A DNA stretch of 64,000 nucleotides, from the NCBI GenBank assembly GCA_038874595.1, contig JAVZCB010000003.1, positions 32,001 to 96,000 on the forward strand, given 5' to 3'. The notes under the pieces were generated by a model. It saw only the letters and a list, made by a program, of their open reading frames with translations, did not search any database and was not told the DNA's origin. This DNA comes from Candidatus Micrarchaeia archaeon. GTDB lineage: Archaea; Micrarchaeota; Micrarchaeia; CAILAH01. Position numbers and translations under genes: made by a program. Positions 45,518 to 54,010 of the stretch are shown one piece after another. The first letter of the stretch is position 1, and every line of letters starts with the position of its first letter.

Positions 45518-45682
45518 AGTGTGGTTTCTTTTTTAAAAGAAAAAGTACAAGTGTGGTTCTTTCCTTTTCTAAAAGAAAAGAATCCTAAAACTTAGAAAAC
45601 CAAAACAAGCTTTCTTTTCTAGATATAAGTTTTCTTTTCTAGTGTAGTTCTTTTCTTTTTCTAAAAGAAAAGAAGTACAAGG
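45518..45682. repeat. Three imperfect TTCTTT..AAAAGAA hairpin repeats downstream of 23S (likely terminator region)
   Basis: gtgtgg/gtgtag-ttcttt...aaaagaaaa(g)aagtacaag units; read as U-tracts on both strands. Confidence 0.55.
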
Positions 45683-45696
45683 ATGGAAATTTTAAG

Positions 45697-45724
45697 GAAG
45701 TGCATTTGGCATAGAACTATTGTT
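45697..45724 (-). other. 3' strand of the pre-23S BHB processing stem (pairs with 48619-48646)
   Basis: 14-bp GAAGTGCATTTGGC/GCCAAATGCACTTC helix, 4-bp GAAT/GTTC helix, bulges ATC and TAT, inner TATTGTT/AACAATA. Confidence 0.85.
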
Positions 45725-48620
45725 AAGGGCTTTAGTAGCAGTGGACTCGCAAATCGCCGAAGCTCTAAGCTTACATCCCTGCCCTATCAAACCCGTCTGT
45801 TACGGGCGCCCATACTGCGTCGTTTCGGGTGCGGCTTCGACCTTAGATGCTTTCAGGTCTTATCCGCCTGGAGCGCAGCTACCCGGCAGTGCTTTTCACA
45901 ACCGGTATACCGGAGGCTCCGAGCCATCGTTCCTCTCGTACTAAATGGTCCTTCCCCTCACGCATAATCACACTTCCAGTAGATACCACCGTACTGTCTC
46001 GCGACGTACTGAACCCAGCTCACGTAGCTCTTTAACGGATGAACAACCCGACCCTTGGCGGCTTATGCACCACCAGGATGAGCTGAGCCGACAGCGATGT
46101 ATCAAACCGCGAGGTCGATATGTACTCTCGCCCGCGACCAATCGGTTACCCCCGGGGTAACTTGTCTGACAGCTAGGACCCTCACCAAAAGGGAATGCCT
46201 AGGTTCGCTAGACCCGGCTTTCGCCCCTGCGTTCCACGCTTTTAGGAACACAGTCAGCCCGACATTTGTTCTTGTCCCTTACCGGTGGATTTCTGACCCA
46301 CCTAAGTCGAGCATTGGGCACCCTTGTTTCCTTTTCGAGGGCGTACCACCCCAGCCAAACTATCCACCTGCAGCTGTCCTTCGGATGAAGTAAGGGTTAT
46401 CGTCTCCGTTGGGTGGTGTTACAGGATTGACTCCACGCAGCCCAGAAGCTGCGCTTCGACGTCTCCCACCTACGCTCTGCAACAGAAACAATAACCCAAC
46501 AACAGGATATAGTGAAGCTCCACGGGGTCTTCTTTTCCCACTGGAAGACCTCGGTATATTCACCGAGTAATGAGTTCACCAGGTCCCGGGTAGGGACAGT
46601 AGAAGAGACGTTATGCCCTTCATGCAAGCCGCCAATTAAGCGGCGAGGTATTACGCTACCTTAAGAGGGTCAGAGTTACCCCCGCTCTTTACCAGCGCTT
46701 AGGCCCGTTGGACCGGGCTTTCACGTACTGGCAGTGAGCAGGCATCGGCCATTGTACTAAGCCTTACGGCTTTGCAATGACCTGTGTTTTTGGTAAACAG
46801 TCGCTCTTCCCTTGTCACTGCGACCTGCTGATGCAACATTTCTGCAACAACAGCAGGCACCCCTTCTTCCTAAGTTACGAGGCTAATTTTCCGAGTTCCC
46901 TTACCCGAGTTCTCCTGCCACGCCTTGGCCTTTTCAGCCAGGGGCACCTGTATTAGTTCTAGGTACGATCTTGCAGGGTCGTTATCCGCTCACTTTTCGT
47001 GGACTCATGGCCTCAACCGAATCCCCAAACGGGGACCATTCCTCACTTTCAACCACTTCTCCTCATAATGAGTCTCGATGGTTGTATGAGAGTTAGACAG
47101 AGTCTCCTCTGCTCGGCCTAGCCGCAAGTGTCATGAGTGGATCTTGCGTTGCCGCACCTACCTGCAAGGCACCGGAATATTAACCGGTTTCCCTTTCGCT
47201 GTAAGGTGATTGGCCTACAGCTTAGGATCGGCTAACTCTCCGCTGACGAACGTTGCGGAGAAAACCGTGCCCTTTCGGCGTTTGGGATTCTCACCCAAAT
47301 TTGCTGTTACTAACACCAGGATATTCATTCCGCACAGCTCCACAGGACCTCACGGCCCTGCTTCTGCACCGTGCCGACGCCTTCCTACTAGATCACACAC
47401 AGAGTGTGCGCTCCTAGGTATCGGTGGCTGGTATAGCCCCTTTATCTTCGGAAACTGCCCTCTCGGTTGGTCCGCTATTACGCGTTGCTTAGAGGATGGC
47501 TGCTTCTAAGCCTACCTCCCAACTGTCTGTGAGAGGGGTTTCCTTAGCGTTTAGCACTTAACCAGCACTTGGGGACCTTAACCTAAGTCTCGGTCGTTCC
47601 CGTCACGCCCCCCGGGTTTACCCCAGGGCACCCGACTGCACCCTTCTACGACGAGCTAATGTTCGGAGTTTAAAAGGGAAGTAGAGCCTTTCGACTCCGT
47701 GTTTCCCGATTAGTGCTCTACCACTAGTTCAGTCTCCAGGTGCGCCATGCTGAGACATGCTTCGGAAGGAACCCGCTATCGCCATGTTCGAATGGACTTT
47801 CACCCCTATACGTCGGTCACCTAAGCAGATATACTAGCACTAGTTGAGCGCCTCCACCGGTTTTTAGACCGGCTTCGCACTGCCAACGCATAGATCACAA
47901 TGGCTTCGGGTCTTGCAGTAGTGATTAACGCCTTTTCAGACGCCCCACCTCGCTTGTACTGCGTGGGCTCGCTTTCGCTCCGCATTTCTGCTCACCACTC
48001 CTGCAAACTCCCTGGCTCTTGCTTCGAGAAGAAAGACAAGACACTGGTCCCCTCATTTCGTTTCCACCCTCTCGAGTGGTCACTTCAATAAGGATCTACC
48101 CTTTCGCGCCTTGCCAACATGTCGCCATACAGTTTCAGGCTCTTTTAACCCTCCTACCTGGAGTGCTTTTCAGCGTTCCCTCACGGTACTAATCCGCTAT
48201 CGGACTCCGGCATCTGTTTAGATTTAGAGGTTGGTACCCCCATATTCCGACTCCCTCAGGGAGCCGTACTCTTTGCACCTTCCTCCAGCACAATCCGCTT
48301 ACGGGGCTATCACCCTTTATCGCAGAGCTTTCCATCTCACTTCAGCTCATGTACTGGATAGAATTGGTGCACCACATCCGCCCCGAAGTTACCCTCGGGG
48401 AGTTCGGTTTGATTCTGTTGGGCGTTCACTCGCCGTTACTAACCCAATCGCAATTGCTTTCTTTTCCTCCCGCTACTAAGATGCTTCAATTCACGGGGTT
48501 ACAGCCCATTTCTGGGCAACGGGCGATCTCGGGTTCAATGGTCGCATGCACCTACCCCGAGCTTATCGCAGCTTGCCACGGCCCAAAGCCGGAACCAGGC
48601 CATCCCCTGTATGGCTTAAA
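45722..48620 (-). rRNA. rrl: 23S rRNA (ends approximate; no intron seen)
   Basis: Sarcin-ricin loop AGTACGAGAGGAAC, PTC segments, GGTAGCGTAAT; ~2.9 kb. Confidence 0.97.
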
Positions 48621-48818
48621 CAATAGATATTCGCCAAATGCACTTCAACCTCATTTCCATCCTCCCATTCGGGAAGATGTGAGCACTCAACGAAGGAAAC
48701 TCACTGTGTCGCTTTTTAGGCAGTTGTGTGTGAAGCACACAATTTGCAACCGAAGGTTGCAACTCCCAAAAAAGCGTAGTTTTTGGTGTCGCTTTTTAGG
48801 CATCCCAAAAAAGCGACT

Positions 48819-48961
48819 TGCAAAGCGGGCGCTCTACCGGACTGAGCTATGAGCCCTTGAGCACGTCACGTTTCTCGATACCGTGACCTGCAGGATGGAC
48901 TCAGCGAGATGCCCAGCACTTTTTTCCTAAAAAAGTGCTTTTGAACTCGCGGCCTCCCGCT
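48819..48961 (-). tRNA. Circularly permuted tRNA-Ala(UGC): 3' half 48961-48896 (with 59/60 intron 48910-48939), 39-nt linker, 5' half 48856-48819
   Basis: GGGCTCA/TGAGTCC acceptor with G3:U70 and A73; CCCGC/GCGGG anticodon stem; terminal BHB TTTG/CAAA with CA|A and AA|A bulges. Confidence 0.9.
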
Positions 48962-48990
48962 TTTTTGGTGTTTCCTTCTCGTGCCTGTAC

Positions 48991-49025
48991 AGGCTTCAAG
49001 AGATTTAGCTTGAGCAAAAAGGCAA
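48991..49025 (-). other. 3' strand of the pre-16S BHB processing stem (pairs with ~51289-51322)
   Basis: AGGCTTCAAGAGA/TCTCTTGAAGCCT helix, GGCT/AGCT 4-bp helix, TAA and AAA bulges, GAGCAA/TTGCTC inner helix. Confidence 0.75.
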
Positions 49026-49227
49026 TACTACAAACTCTGACCTTGCAACCTTAGAAGATCTCAAATATGCTTACAACCTAACACGTATATTCTTGTTAGG
49101 AGGTGATCTATCCGCAGGTTCCCCTACGGATACCTTGTTACGACTTAGCCCCCCTCATGAAACTCTAGTTCGATAACGGCAAGAACCGCTACCTCACTAG
49201 AACCTCACTTGGGTGACTTGACGGGCA

Positions 49228-49265
<38 letters not shown>

Positions 49266-49283
49266 CTGACATGCGATTACTAG

Positions 49284-49324
<41 letters not shown>

Positions 49325-49509
49325 CACTGGGATGGGGTTTCAGGGATTAGCTCACCCTTTCGGGTTTGCAACCCGTTGTTCCCACCATTGTAGGCCACGT
49401 GTAGCCCGGGAAATTCGGGGCATACTGACCTACCGTCGCTCACTCCTTCCTCCTGCTTAACGCAGGCAGTCCCCTTAGAGTGCTTCCTGGACGAATCCAA
49501 GAATCGCAA

Positions 49510-50004
49510 CTAAGGGCGTGGGTCTCGCTCGTTTCCGGACCACATAGCCTGAGAGTGGGGTTTGATGAAAGTGAGGAATTCTCTGGGAGGGGATGGAATT
49601 AAGTATTTGCCTTCTTTGATGAGCCTGAACCCAAGGCGCTCTATTAGCATCTGCTTATCAGCGCCGACACTGAACATCCTGGGTATTCCGTTCTCATCAA
49701 TAAATCCTGATGCATCGAACACGCCCGCAACAAATGCGGCGCTGTATGCATTCCTGTGTTTGAACCTGAGGTCCATTTCTTTCTCAACCTCTGAGAAGAA
49801 TTTTTTGTACCCTGAGTGGTAGAAATATGCCTTCTTCCCGCTCAGCAGTATCTTGCTTGCGGGCATAAGCCCTGCATTTATAACTGCGCTTATGAAATGC
49901 TCACGCACGTGCGGAAGCCCCCGCACGCCGATTCCTACCCATGATTTTCGTGTAGACCACATACCTATTATATATGCAAGTTCTGGCGTTAGCTTTATTT
50001 TCAT
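49510..50004 (-). CDS. LAGLIDADG homing endonuclease (short two-motif type)
   Basis: LTPELAYIIGMW (degenerate motif 1) and FVAGVFDASG (motif 2); GGGGG SD inside the intron. Confidence 0.85.
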   Translation of the reverse strand: MKIKLTPELAYIIGMWSTRKSWVGIGVRGLPHVREHFISAVINAGLMPASKILLSGKKAYFYHSGYKKFFSEVEKEMDLRFKHRNAYSAAFVAGVFDASGFIDENGIPRMFSVGADKQMLIERLGFRLIKEGKYLIPSPPREFLTFIKPHSQAMWSGNERDPRP

Positions 50005-50043
50005 AATTTCCCCCCATCAAACCTTATCTCAAACTCTGTGATT
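49533..50043 (-). mobile_element. 511-nt archaeal BHB-type 16S intron carrying a homing endonuclease (E. coli ~1093-1101; junction ambiguous, alternative 49541-50051)
   Basis: Interrupts TTAAGTCCGGNAACGAGCG; CCGG/CCGG helix with GAA and AAA bulges and ATCACA/TGTGGT inner helix. Confidence 0.85.
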
Positions 50044-50197
50044 TCCCGGACTTAACCGGACAGTTCACACCACGAGCTGACGATGGCCATGCACCACCTC
50101 TCGGCTTGTCAAGCAAGGTCTTTAGCCTGGCTCTCATTCTGCCGTCGTTCCCGGTAAGATTCCCGGCGTTGAATCCAATTGAACCGCAGCCTCCACG

Positions 50198-50232
<35 letters not shown>

Positions 50233-50332
50233 TAGCCTTGCGGCCGTACTCCCCAGGTGGCAGACTTAACACCTACGCTACGGCACGGCAGCCGCTCAAA
50301 GCTGCTGCCACACCAAGTCTGCATCATTTACA

Positions 50333-50374
<42 letters not shown>

Positions 50375-50446
50375 CTTCGTTCCTCACCGTCGGACGTGTT
50401 TTGGTCAGGCGCCTTCGCCACTGCTGGTCCGCCCAGGATTAACGGA

Positions 50447-50489
50447 TTGTAATCCCGTGGATTGCAAATTGTTGATGCAATCAACAGGT
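50447..50489 (-). other. 43-nt hairpin 16S intron (E. coli ~696/697)
   Basis: GTAA/TTAC helix, AA|A and AA|T bulges; removal restores GGGGTAAAATCC. Confidence 0.82.
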
Positions 50490-50761
50490 TTTTACCCCTA
50501 CCCCGGGCGTACCCCTGACCTCCCCCACTCCCAAGCCTAGCAGTATTACTGGCCCGCCCTTCGGTTAAGCCGAAGGATTTCACCAGCAACTTACAAGGCC
50601 GGCTACGAACGCTTTAGACCCAATATGCGTGGGTACCACTAGTAGTGCCGGTATTACCGCGGCGGCTGGCACCGGTCTTACCCACTCCTTATTCGCCTAG
50701 TTTTTTAGACTAAGCAAAAGGTCTCCCGAAGGAGACCACTCGGAGTTCCCCCATCACACTT

Positions 50762-50808
50762 TTGCACCTTGCAAAGCAAGTGCAAATTGCAAAGCTCGCT
50801 TTGCATGT
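50762..50808 (-). other. 47-nt hairpin 16S intron (E. coli ~381/382)
   Basis: GCAC/GTGC helix, GA|A and AA|A bulges; removal restores TGCACGAAAGTGTG. Confidence 0.82.
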
Positions 50809-51462
50809 TCGTGCATTGTGGAGTTTTCGCGCCTGCTGCATCCCGTAGGACTAGGGCCCTTGTCTCAGTGCCCTTCTGGGGGCTCCCACTTACATGGCCC
50901 CTAAGGATTATAGGTTTGGTGGGCCGTTACCCCGCCAACAGCCTAATCCTCCGCAACCTCATCCTAAAGCGGACACACTCCAATTCGTGTGCCTTTTGAG
51001 CGAGAGGGCATTCCAGCGTCTCTCACCTATAGGGTATTATCCTCAGTTTCCCGAGGTTACCCCCTTCTTTAGGGCAGATTGATTACGTGTTACTCAGCCG
51101 TTTGCCACTCGTCCAGGTGAACGGGTAGACTTGCATGGCTTAGTCGAACTCCGATAGCAGTACCCTCCAGCAGGATCAACTGGAGTTGCTAAGGTCTTGG
51201 CATTCGCACCAGTGTTGGTGCATCTAGGTCATACCACTTTGCGTGTAGTATCTTACCGTACATATGTGCCTTTCAGCACAGTGCACGTTTGCCTATTGCT
51301 CTTTAAGCCTCTCTTGAAGCCTCTATCTAACCCGACACATCTTCGGATTATCATCAAGTCGCCGCATGTGCGGCCTATGCGCCACAATGGAAGCAGGCCT
51401 CATAGAAAGAGTATCACATCTCGGCCTAGCCGGGTTATGGCATCTCAACTTTAAGAAGTCTA

Positions 51463-51478: not shown

Positions 51479-51578
51479 TACCCGCGTTCTGAAACTTTAA
51501 AAACAAAATTGTAGCTTGCGAAAAAATGGCCTGCACGCAAGCAAAATATTTATAAGTGTGAAATAATTGAATGCACCC

Positions 51579-52727
51579 ATGCGCGTAACATTGATAGATC
51601 AAAACGGCAATGTATTTCCAACATACCTTCGTAAGAATCTGAAGGTTGAGGTGGTAAAGAACCGTGATGGGTTTGTGCGTCTTAAGATGAAGCACGATTC
51701 GCTTAAATCTTCTGGCGGTTCACTGAACCTGCTTGAAAAGCGCTATCTTGCACATATAGGCCCTAATACAAAGCAAATCAAAATTACTGCTGATGTGCTA
51801 AGAGCAGTCAGGCTGGTTAAGCACATTCGTGAAAGTTATGATATCGAGAAGGAAAAGCTCGCAAAATTGTTTGAGTACATATCAAATGCAATCATGCTCT
51901 TAGAAAGGCACAATAAAAAATCAAAGCAGTGCGAAGAGGATTTATCTCTTGCAGAATCTTTTGTTGTAGGGACAATCTGCGGAATGAATCAGGCGCGCTC
52001 CTTTTATAAGGTGCTCTCGAAGGCAAAGCTTGAGAAAGCTGTTTATTATATAAAGAGTGCGCAGATTGCAGAAAATGATTTTGAAATGAATATGCACCTC
52101 AAACCCGCATCTTCTATATTATATGCTGCAAAGAGGCGCTTGGAGATGCGCCTGGATAGTATTGGCAATATAAAGAACTATAATTTGCAGCGTGAGATGC
52201 TGCTGCGGGGCATGCGTGATATGTATATACACCGCAAGATGTTATCCCTTGCACAATGGCTAACTAATAACCCTGGAACAGTGGTTGATGCGTACCTCTC
52301 TGATATAAACATATACAATAGGCTGCTCAAGCTGCAGGAGAGATGCATGGATAATTATATACGAGAGGGGGATAGGTTTGCAAAGTTCCAAAGTGATTTG
52401 GAAGCGCTTGGCAGCTCTCTAAAGCAAATAAAGGGCAAGGAGAAATTGGTTGACCTTTTGAGAGAGGCGTACGTATGGGGTGTTAAGCGCTTTATGTTTG
52501 ATATGGCATACCAAATGTTTGACACAGCGGTTGTTTATGTTGGTGTGAACAAGCCATTCTATATCTGGTCGCAGCTCGAAAAGACAAATGATCCATATAC
52601 CTCTCCAGTCATATCAAAGCTGCAGGAAGTTGACGAGCATATGCTTAGCAGGAACCCAAAGGCAGCCCTGGAAAAAGTGTATGACACGATTGGTTTTTAT
52701 GAGAAGCTGTTCAAAGGTGCGGTGTAG
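51579..52727 (+). CDS. Hypothetical helical protein
   Basis: ~380-aa ORF downstream of a TATA-like tttataag; no recognisable motif. Confidence 0.7.
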   Translation: MRVTLIDQNGNVFPTYLRKNLKVEVVKNRDGFVRLKMKHDSLKSSGGSLNLLEKRYLAHIGPNTKQIKITADVLRAVRLVKHIRESYDIEKEKLAKLFEYISNAIMLLERHNKKSKQCEEDLSLAESFVVGTICGMNQARSFYKVLSKAKLEKAVYYIKSAQIAENDFEMNMHLKPASSILYAAKRRLEMRLDSIGNIKNYNLQREMLLRGMRDMYIHRKMLSLAQWLTNNPGTVVDAYLSDINIYNRLLKLQERCMDNYIREGDRFAKFQSDLEALGSSLKQIKGKEKLVDLLREAYVWGVKRFMFDMAYQMFDTAVVYVGVNKPFYIWSQLEKTNDPYTSPVISKLQEVDEHMLSRNPKAALEKVYDTIGFYEKLFKGAV

Positions 52728-52798
52728 GAGAATAGAAAAATATATAAACCCAAAATAAAGCAAAAGTAATTACAGATTTAATCATAGGTGTGTAAACG

Positions 52799-54010
52799 AT
52801 GAGCACAATTAAGAAAAGACCTGGATATTCGCTTATGCGCGAAACCCAAAATGAAGAAAAAGGGCGCGAGCTTGCAAAGATGATGAAAACTAATCCAAAG
52901 GCGATGCGCTATTTTATGAAGAGGAACCCTTTTGTAAGGGTTGGCGAGATAGGCGAGATGGTCATCTCGACAGAATCGCACTCAAGAAAGGAATGGCTGC
53001 GCTCTGCGTTTTACAATCTTGCAGAGCCCTACCTGAAAGATGACAAGATGCGCGATGTTAACATTGAGGGTGCAGTTAAGGGTACGCTTGAGGCGGCAAA
53101 GAAAGAAATTATGTCAAAGCCTGTAAAGACTGAAGATGATTTGAATTGTTTAAAGGTTATTGATGAGATGCTCAAAAAGGATAATGAAATTGACTCATCA
53201 AAAATTCTAAAGGACAAGGAAAAATGGTGGAGGCGCATATTGCGTTTCTTAACAGCAGCAGCTCTAGGTGCTGCGCTTATGCTTCCGTTTATGTCGCGTG
53301 AAGGTGATATCGAGCCAAAGGTTGTTGAGAAGAGGATTGAGGACCCAGAAACAAAGAAATCCCTTGAGGAGTGCCTTGCAGCACTTAACAATAATAAGTG
53401 CCCGCCATCCAAGGTTGTTTACAAGAAAGTTTCTGGAAACATTGATTTGGATAATGTATGCAGTGGCAGGACCGGCCCGCTTGCACAATCACTTCTGACT
53501 TGCGAGAATGAGCTTTCGAAACTTAAGGATGAGCTTGCAAGGATATCCGCACTTAAGGGTGACAATGAGAAATATGCCCAACTTAAAGTAGAGCTTATGG
53601 CGAAAGTTGACAGGATATTCAATGGTATTGGTTTGGAAACTGAGAATGAGTTATACCGGAAGCAGATACGGCCATGGTTCAAGAGCGGTATTGACAAAGA
53701 TGACCCTGTAATGATAGCACTTGTGATTGAGATGGGCGGTGAGCTGCTTGTCCAGAAAATTACTGATAAAAAGGTTGTGGAAATCTCCGAACCAAAGAGC
53801 CAGAAAGAATTTTCTGATGTTTTTGAGGAAGGAAACCTTGCCTATCTTTATGGCATAGCGTTTGATAAAAATAGTGGTAACCGCAGAGACGGGATGAAAA
53901 AGGCTGCATGGGAGTATTACAAGGTGAAATATAAATTGTTCCAGAATGTCCTTAATAAGTTTAAGAATTCTGATGAAGAAAATTCTGATGAAGATGTGCT
54001 AGATAGATAA
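52799..54010 (+). CDS. Hypothetical single-pass membrane protein with coiled coil
   Basis: Internal WWRRILRFLTAAALGAALMLP helix; Cys-containing segment; NSDEE/NSDED tail duplication. Confidence 0.7.
   Translation: MSTIKKRPGYSLMRETQNEEKGRELAKMMKTNPKAMRYFMKRNPFVRVGEIGEMVISTESHSRKEWLRSAFYNLAEPYLKDDKMRDVNIEGAVKGTLEAAKKEIMSKPVKTEDDLNCLKVIDEMLKKDNEIDSSKILKDKEKWWRRILRFLTAAALGAALMLPFMSREGDIEPKVVEKRIEDPETKKSLEECLAALNNNKCPPSKVVYKKVSGNIDLDNVCSGRTGPLAQSLLTCENELSKLKDELARISALKGDNEKYAQLKVELMAKVDRIFNGIGLETENELYRKQIRPWFKSGIDKDDPVMIALVIEMGGELLVQKITDKKVVEISEPKSQKEFSDVFEEGNLAYLYGIAFDKNSGNRRDGMKKAAWEYYKVKYKLFQNVLNKFKNSDEENSDEDVLDR

Follow-up and report, generated by a model that had tools for sequence, protein, structure and literature searches.

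A permuted tRNA-Ala(UGC) gene, very probably functional, in the 16S–23S rRNA spacer of a Micrarchaeota archaeon

Layout and product of the spacer gene

The spacer between the 16S and 23S rRNA genes of this Micrarchaeota genome, which belongs to a very small archaeon of hot springs, carries a tRNA-Ala(UGC) gene whose two halves stand in reversed order, and this permuted gene is very probably functional. Within the window (the whole 64,000-nt stretch of DNA analysed, whose positions are used throughout), the 3' half on the minus strand (48961-48896) comes first and is followed by a 39-nt linker and then by the 5' half (48856-48819). The full order of the spacer on that strand is leader, A38-A59, a 30-nt intron, U60-A73, the hairpin linker, G1-A37 and trailer (Table 1). 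The 3' part lies upstream of the 5' part on one strand, with sequence intervening between nucleotides 73 and 1, and the locus, flanked by the processing stems of the 16S and 23S rRNAs, is orthologous to the spacer gene of its relatives. With considerable confidence we take it to be a working, circularly permuted tRNA-Ala(UGC) gene of type II (broken at 37/38), with an extra intron at 59/60 and co-transcribed within the 16S-23S precursor. A split, trans-spliced tRNA gene was considered and rejected: the halves are 39 nt apart, on one strand and inside the rRNA spacer.

Table 1. Features of the rRNA operon spacer and its permuted tRNA gene (window positions)
Feature	Position	Strand	Remark
16S rRNA gene	49098..51186	-	2089 nt with insertions
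16S processing stem, 3' arm	48992..49017	-	BHB-like; pairs with 51296-51321
Long-range 9-bp helix closing the tRNA domain, 5' arm	48970..48978	-	
Leader end ACACCAAAAA	48962..48971	-	source of the central-helix CAAA and of the bulge at the 3' splice site; duplicates the tail of the old intron
First exon piece of 3' half, A38-A59	48940..48961	-	
Intron at 59/60	48910..48939	-	30 nt; BHB with central UUCA/UGGG, two G-U pairs
Second exon piece of 3' half, U60-A73	48896..48909	-	CCA not encoded
Hairpin linker, A73 to G1	48857..48895	-	39 nt
5' half, G1-A37	48819..48856	-	38 nt, anticodon UGC
Trailer module 1	48780..48818	-	former 37/38 intron, complete with its 10-bp hairpin and ACACCAAAAA tail; an intron module seen across the family
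Trailer module 2	48706..48774	-	multi-hairpin repeat; also in same-genus tRNA introns and intergenic DNA
Probable decayed remnant of another 3' half, with T arm and acceptor strand	48683..48704	-	directly before conserved CTCACATC; suggestive only
Long-range 9-bp helix, 3' arm	48692..48700	-	
23S processing stem, 5' arm	48633..48662	-	strict BHB; pairs with 45681-45710
23S rRNA gene	45712..48631	-	rRNA annotation

When the intron (48939-48910) is removed and the halves are joined, the resulting 74 nt are recognised by ARAGORN as tRNA-Ala(tgc). Both ARAGORN and folding give a canonical cloverleaf, with a 7-bp acceptor stem, the identity elements G3:U70 and A73, and a 5-bp anticodon stem. The original prediction, made from the sequence, is borne out here: the coordinates and pairings of the halves could be re-derived from the sequence, ARAGORN and folding, and the exact fit it described, with the 7-bp acceptor, G3:U70 and A73, is seen in the joined molecule. 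Its warning that standard scanners would miss the gene was equally well founded, as neither ARAGORN nor Rfam found it in the unaltered locus (Rfam E 8.6).

A genome-wide scan that allowed for introns and looked for matching sets of acceptor, D and T arms gave 38 tRNA loci, 37 normal and one permuted; being the only locus of permuted order, it is not a chance match. A search for another tRNA-Ala(UGC) gene, proposed with the prediction as a check, found no second Ala(UGC) half in the genome, which is 93.5% complete (918 kb) and from which about 40 tRNA genes were recovered; it is likely that a second gene is absent. GCA makes up 8034 of the 16334 alanine codons (49%) in 451 long ORFs. The genes for Ala(GGC) and Ala(CGC) have the normal order, and by the wobble rules neither of these tRNAs can read GCA.

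The spacer contains short repeats and rRNA operons assemble poorly, circumstances under which an assembler could have swapped the halves of a normal gene. Against this, two sequencing runs from different studies (X1 and X2) each yielded a single 1109-nt unitig that spans the spacer (48300-49127), with 0 and 1 differences, respectively, though one of these runs may itself be the source of the window. The permuted order recurs in a separate NCBI MAG, GCA_038891275.1, which matches over 17.2 kb at 99.9% identity and has one change in the trailer. The check for misassembly advised with the prediction also extends to a divergent population: run X3, a 2014 hot-spring metatranscriptome, gave a 151-nt contig over 48981-48827 that is again permuted and differs from the window by 6 substitutions, a linker shorter by 10 nt and an intron longer by 6 nt, the indels being confined to linker and intron. 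With all these sources agreeing in order, an assembly artefact is scarcely credible. The X3 contig is unspliced and ends at 48827, short of the junction; it may derive from DNA and is therefore taken to show a second allele rather than expression. A contig from run X4 carries the 5' half and a near-identical hairpin 142 nt past the end of the 16S gene, and no 3' half was matched ahead of them; although the contig ends at that point, this layout suggests a close relative with the normal order.

Could the locus be a dead or dying rearranged copy, with the working Ala(UGC) gene in an unassembled part of the genome? The completeness of 93.5% and an incomplete tRNA set leave room for this, and many members of the class place Ala(UGC) outside the rRNA operon. 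However, both halves are almost identical to the functional genes of the relatives and every stem is intact, in contrast to a neighbouring remnant that has decayed; moreover, the X3 indels avoid the exons, and members of the family keep the gene in the spacer. We therefore consider a dead copy improbable.

The 37/38 junction and a model of processing

The uncut precursor was folded at 37, 60 and 75 °C. The cloverleaf stems already form in it: six acceptor pairs have P 0.97-0.98 and A7-U66 has 0.78, the anticodon stem has 0.87 and the T stem 0.96. The long-range pairing that had been proposed to back the junction is a 9-bp helix with P 0.96-1.0. By contrast, the 2-bp GT/AC closure postulated with it has P about 0.00 and must be abandoned, because its GT begins a local 10-bp hairpin (P 0.99 for the first five pairs). 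The bulge-helix-bulge (BHB) predicted at 37/38 consequently survives in part: the central helix, the bulges and a relaxed motif stand, but the strict, closed BHB does not. There is a 4-bp central helix, UUUG/CAAA, which together with the two 3-nt bulges is complementary in sequence; the bulge at A38 is clean, and that at A37 opens onto a multibranch loop. The predicted probability of the central helix is low (about 0.02), but the same helix in the normal 37/38 introns of seven relatives scores only 0.00-0.21, so the low value is no evidence against splicing. The normal intron of one of them, G005, has an identical layout of hairpin, 2-nt spacer and CAAA. The trailer contains a second CAAA, which could compete with that of the leader for the same strand. 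As modelled, then, the element formed by leader and trailer is of the relaxed bulge-helix-loop (BHL) type and not a strict BHB closed by GT/AC. The 59/60 intron had been called a clean BHB intron; the 30-nt intron and its BHB hold up, although two of the four pairs of the central helix are G-U. This site is interrupted in the relatives too.

The enzymes that such a gene would require are encoded in the genome. The two pieces of the splicing endonuclease EndA, which flank a scaffold gap, are closest to the ARMAN-2 enzyme 4FZ2 (E 2e-43 and 3e-40), and this proximity points to a host in the Micrarchaeota. The ARMAN-2 endonuclease, with specificity-loop residues Tyr160 and Lys161 and catalytic residues Tyr236, His251 and Lys282, cleaves BHB as well as relaxed BHL motifs (PMC12397907). 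Aligned to 4FZ2, the host protein has residues matching all five, and by this sequence comparison it is a broad-specificity, ARMAN-type endonuclease. RtcB, RNase P RNA, a CCA enzyme and AlaRS are also encoded, together with an RNase Z-like protein whose match score lies just below the cut-off (288.6 versus 292.95). AlaRS is matched by a 597-aa frame over model positions 1-436 (C2:151568-152869), and a separate 275-aa frame matches positions 478-552 (C6:41534-41758); judging from these matches, the two frames would represent either a split AlaRS or an AlaRS plus an AlaX editing protein.

With respect to the operon, the motif in the 16S stem is BHB-like, and that in the 23S stem is a strict BHB. 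The arm of the 16S stem ends 30 nt ahead of A38 and 14 nt ahead of the helix that closes the tRNA domain, and the arm of the 23S stem begins 29 nt past that helix. No TATA-like box is visible between the 16S stem arm and the tRNA, and this, together with the spacing of the stem arms, makes co-transcription with the rRNA likely. In archaea, motifs of this kind are the sites at which the precursors of 16S and 23S rRNA become circular (bioRxiv 10.64898/2026.03.23.713588). We infer the following course of processing. The halves would pair into a cloverleaf within the 16S-23S precursor, where the ARMAN-type endonuclease would cleave next to A37 and A38 within the relaxed motif and would also excise the 59/60 intron. 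RtcB would then join A37 to A38, most likely producing a circle in which the linker bridges the two tRNA ends; the linker would then be removed by RNase P and RNase Z, and the CCA enzyme would complete the 3' end. The same enzymes should also act on the flanking 16S and 23S stems. With splice motifs in the 16S stem, the tRNA domain and the 23S stem, three successive splice events are predicted on one transcript, which probably gives three splice products.

The order of these steps is where the readings diverge. Quite possibly, though we put it forward tentatively, the pre-rRNA resolves into three consecutive endonuclease/ligase circles (pre-16S, pre-tRNA-Ala and pre-23S), the supply of the GCA-reading tRNA being tied to rRNA splicing, at a locus that keeps real leftovers of duplication and loss and has normal-order relatives available for comparison. 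If true, supply of the tRNA that reads the most frequent alanine codon would hinge on rRNA splicing. In a variant inside the main reading of a working permuted gene, which takes about one third of its share, RNase P and RNase Z would drop the linker first, and the paired halves, each continuous with an rRNA precursor (16S or 23S), would be spliced in trans with no circle. The acceptor and T stems recognised by these two enzymes do form in the uncut precursor, and the 37/38 helix is weak; but in Cyanidioschyzon merolae the circle has been detected, and linker processing there depended on prior removal of the T-loop intron (PMC3978253). We regard the linker-first route as rather unlikely, and passage of the tRNA through a circle as the likelier course.

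Normal-order relatives and the origin of the permuted gene

The class survey covered 401 genomes, 67 of which (own genome included) had a matching Ala(UGC) 5' half. The 66 other genomes with a detectable gene all have it in the normal order, 44 as scored by script and 22 with a variant T loop as seen by inspection. The survey of related spacers suggested with the original prediction thus found normal order throughout, and 20 relatives have the normal-order Ala(UGC) just after the 16S end, as expected if the present gene is the conserved spacer tRNA-Ala in permuted form. No permuted Ala(UGC) with a linker of 14-44 nt was found in 400 class genomes, and for linkers of 0-14 nt there was one match, by chance. 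GTDB contigs gave none for 14-44 nt and, for 0-13 nt, four matches that are normal genes. In JGI data 34 matches to the permuted pattern were rejected as YrlA-like RNAs, tandem tRNAs or chance. All of these scan patterns were exact and miss D-loop introns and longer linkers. In the same-genus genomes G001 (81% complete) and G002 (64% complete) an Ala(UGC) 5' half was not found, which leaves gene order in the genus unscored; homologues of a flanking gene led to no new spacer beyond those of L076 and the G006 contig. By these comparisons the permutation is recent and narrow among the genomes searched. Loci L111-L129, L134, L163 and L164 have an Ala(UGC) gene outside the rRNA operon with a GUGCGA T loop instead of GUUCRA.

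The three same-family genomes in which the operon is present have an intron at each of the sites 37/38 and 59/60, and the 37/38 intron of the relatives falls exactly where the present gene is broken and shares its relaxed geometry. This old intron appears to be retained here as trailer module 1. The motif ACACCAAAAA, which occurs 12 times in 1.8 Mb (both strands), ends both the trailer intron (48789-48780) and the leader (48971-48962). Relatives have both trailer modules in their tRNA introns as well, and further copies occur as a 23S-gene insertion (module 1) and in intergenic DNA (module 2). Beyond the modules there is a 9/13 match to the tRNA 3' end (p about 0.004 anchored and 0.03-0.05 unanchored, post hoc), which directly precedes CTCACATC, the sequence that follows A73 in G004 and G005. 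This remnant and the repeated tail were recognised only in hindsight. The leader yielded no vestige of the lost 5' half (p 0.36). Other tRNA genes of the host have tandem copies of their 3' ends, showing that local duplication at tRNA genes occurs in this genome. These copies come after Ala(GGC) (63-nt period), Ser(GGA) (91-nt period), Ser(UGA) and Asn(GUU), at C2:682-808, C3:54974-54792, C4:79070-79181 and C6:28680-28458. The linker also resembles the repeat that follows tRNA-Ala(GGC), but the resemblance is weak, was noted post hoc (p 0.015-0.036) and was set aside.

A duplication-and-loss model has been put forward for permuted genes, alongside competing models of origin (PMC3978253). We infer that the present gene probably arose recently, when a normal, intron-bearing spacer gene was duplicated and the outer halves were lost; the old intron that was kept, its tail repeated in the leader and the decayed 3' end further on fit duplication followed by loss. 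Alternatively, a copy that was already permuted may have been inserted into a leader hairpin of the kind seen in G006. The family still includes the ancestral, normal-order form of the gene, with its intron at the break point, so that models of origin can be compared on real sequence.

Two further observations concern these elements. Across the family, hairpin modules like those of 48706-48818 (L021, L083-L085, L089, L096, L106, L109) sit in 37/38 and 59/60 tRNA introns, in a 23S-gene insertion and in intergenic repeats, and are a candidate mobile, intron-forming element. In the L010 spacer (G038:C29) an additional Ala 5' start stands ahead of the normal spacer tRNA-Ala, another local duplication.

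Comparison with known permuted tRNAs and related RNAs

Permuted tRNA genes are known but rare, and the published archaeal cases that we found are two genes of one species, Thermofilum, both broken at 59/60. Like the present gene, these are archaeal and single-copy, with the 3' part first, a splice motif at the junction and an extra intron. They differ in that the break is at 59/60 and the intron at 37/38, the linkers are 7 and 1 nt long, CCA is encoded and each gene has its own promoter; here the break is at 37/38 and the intron at 59/60, the linker is a 39-nt hairpin, CCA is not encoded and the setting is a DPANN rRNA operon. A circular intermediate had been claimed at the outset for both Cyanidioschyzon and Thermofilum; it has been shown in the algae, whereas the Thermofilum papers offer sequence and structure prediction only. 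The type II genes of C. merolae and green algae share the 37/38 break point, and our 39-nt linker falls inside their known range of 1-74 nt, but they are eukaryotic and stand-alone, and the algal Ala(UGC) is of type IV (PMC3978253). Type II permuted genes are listed in algae only; C. merolae Gly(CCC) also has a T-loop intron, and an origin of permuted genes by duplication and loss is proposed in the same review (PMC3978253).

Thermococcus barophilus shares the 16S-tRNA-Ala-23S layout and has splice motifs in both rRNA stems (bioRxiv 10.64898/2026.03.23.713588). Its spacer tRNA is in the normal order, whereas here a third spliced domain lies between those of the rRNAs. In agreement with the original prediction, which knew of no permuted tRNA in an rRNA operon, a literature search that covered few subscription papers found none in an rRNA operon or in DPANN, and none that paired a permuted tRNA with Micrarchaeota or with MAGs. 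The gene thus adds to the archaeal permuted tRNAs a break in the anticodon loop, a DPANN host and the setting of the rRNA operon, and it implies that "missing" DPANN tRNAs can hide in the most-studied locus of a genome.

Bacterial YrlA RNAs (Rfam RF02553) fit the same pattern of 3' end, linker and 5' start: in both cases the tRNA fold is opened at the anticodon arm and the acceptor end is looped. The locus might accordingly be read as a Y RNA of this type, a non-decoding, Ro60-bound tRNA mimic permuted at the anticodon stem. YrlA, however, has no anticodon loop to restore, whereas the present locus has a complete one flanked by splice-site geometry and occupies a conserved spacer position; furthermore, neither an RF02553 match nor a Ro60 (TROVE) gene was found in the genome (93.5% complete). 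A Y RNA is thus extremely improbable. Many bacterial loci with a YrlA-like layout were met in the searches (L032-L065); four were tested and only L049 reached the Rfam cut-off. Unannotated Y RNA variants may be among them.

Several observations concern the rRNA genes and their surroundings. The 16S gene exceeds the model length by about 600 nt and contains, on the minus strand, a 164-aa ORF (49510-50004) without a Pfam match. ORFs inside the G005 and G006 16S genes share about 70% identity with it; the frame may belong to an intron, or it may be conserved rRNA translated as if it were protein. In L027 (G010:C1) a CRISPR-like repeat array lies about 190 nt past an unlinked 16S gene. Finally, the region upstream of the 16S gene (51567-54010) holds two genes (386 and 403 aa) that have no Pfam hit and are syntenic across the family.
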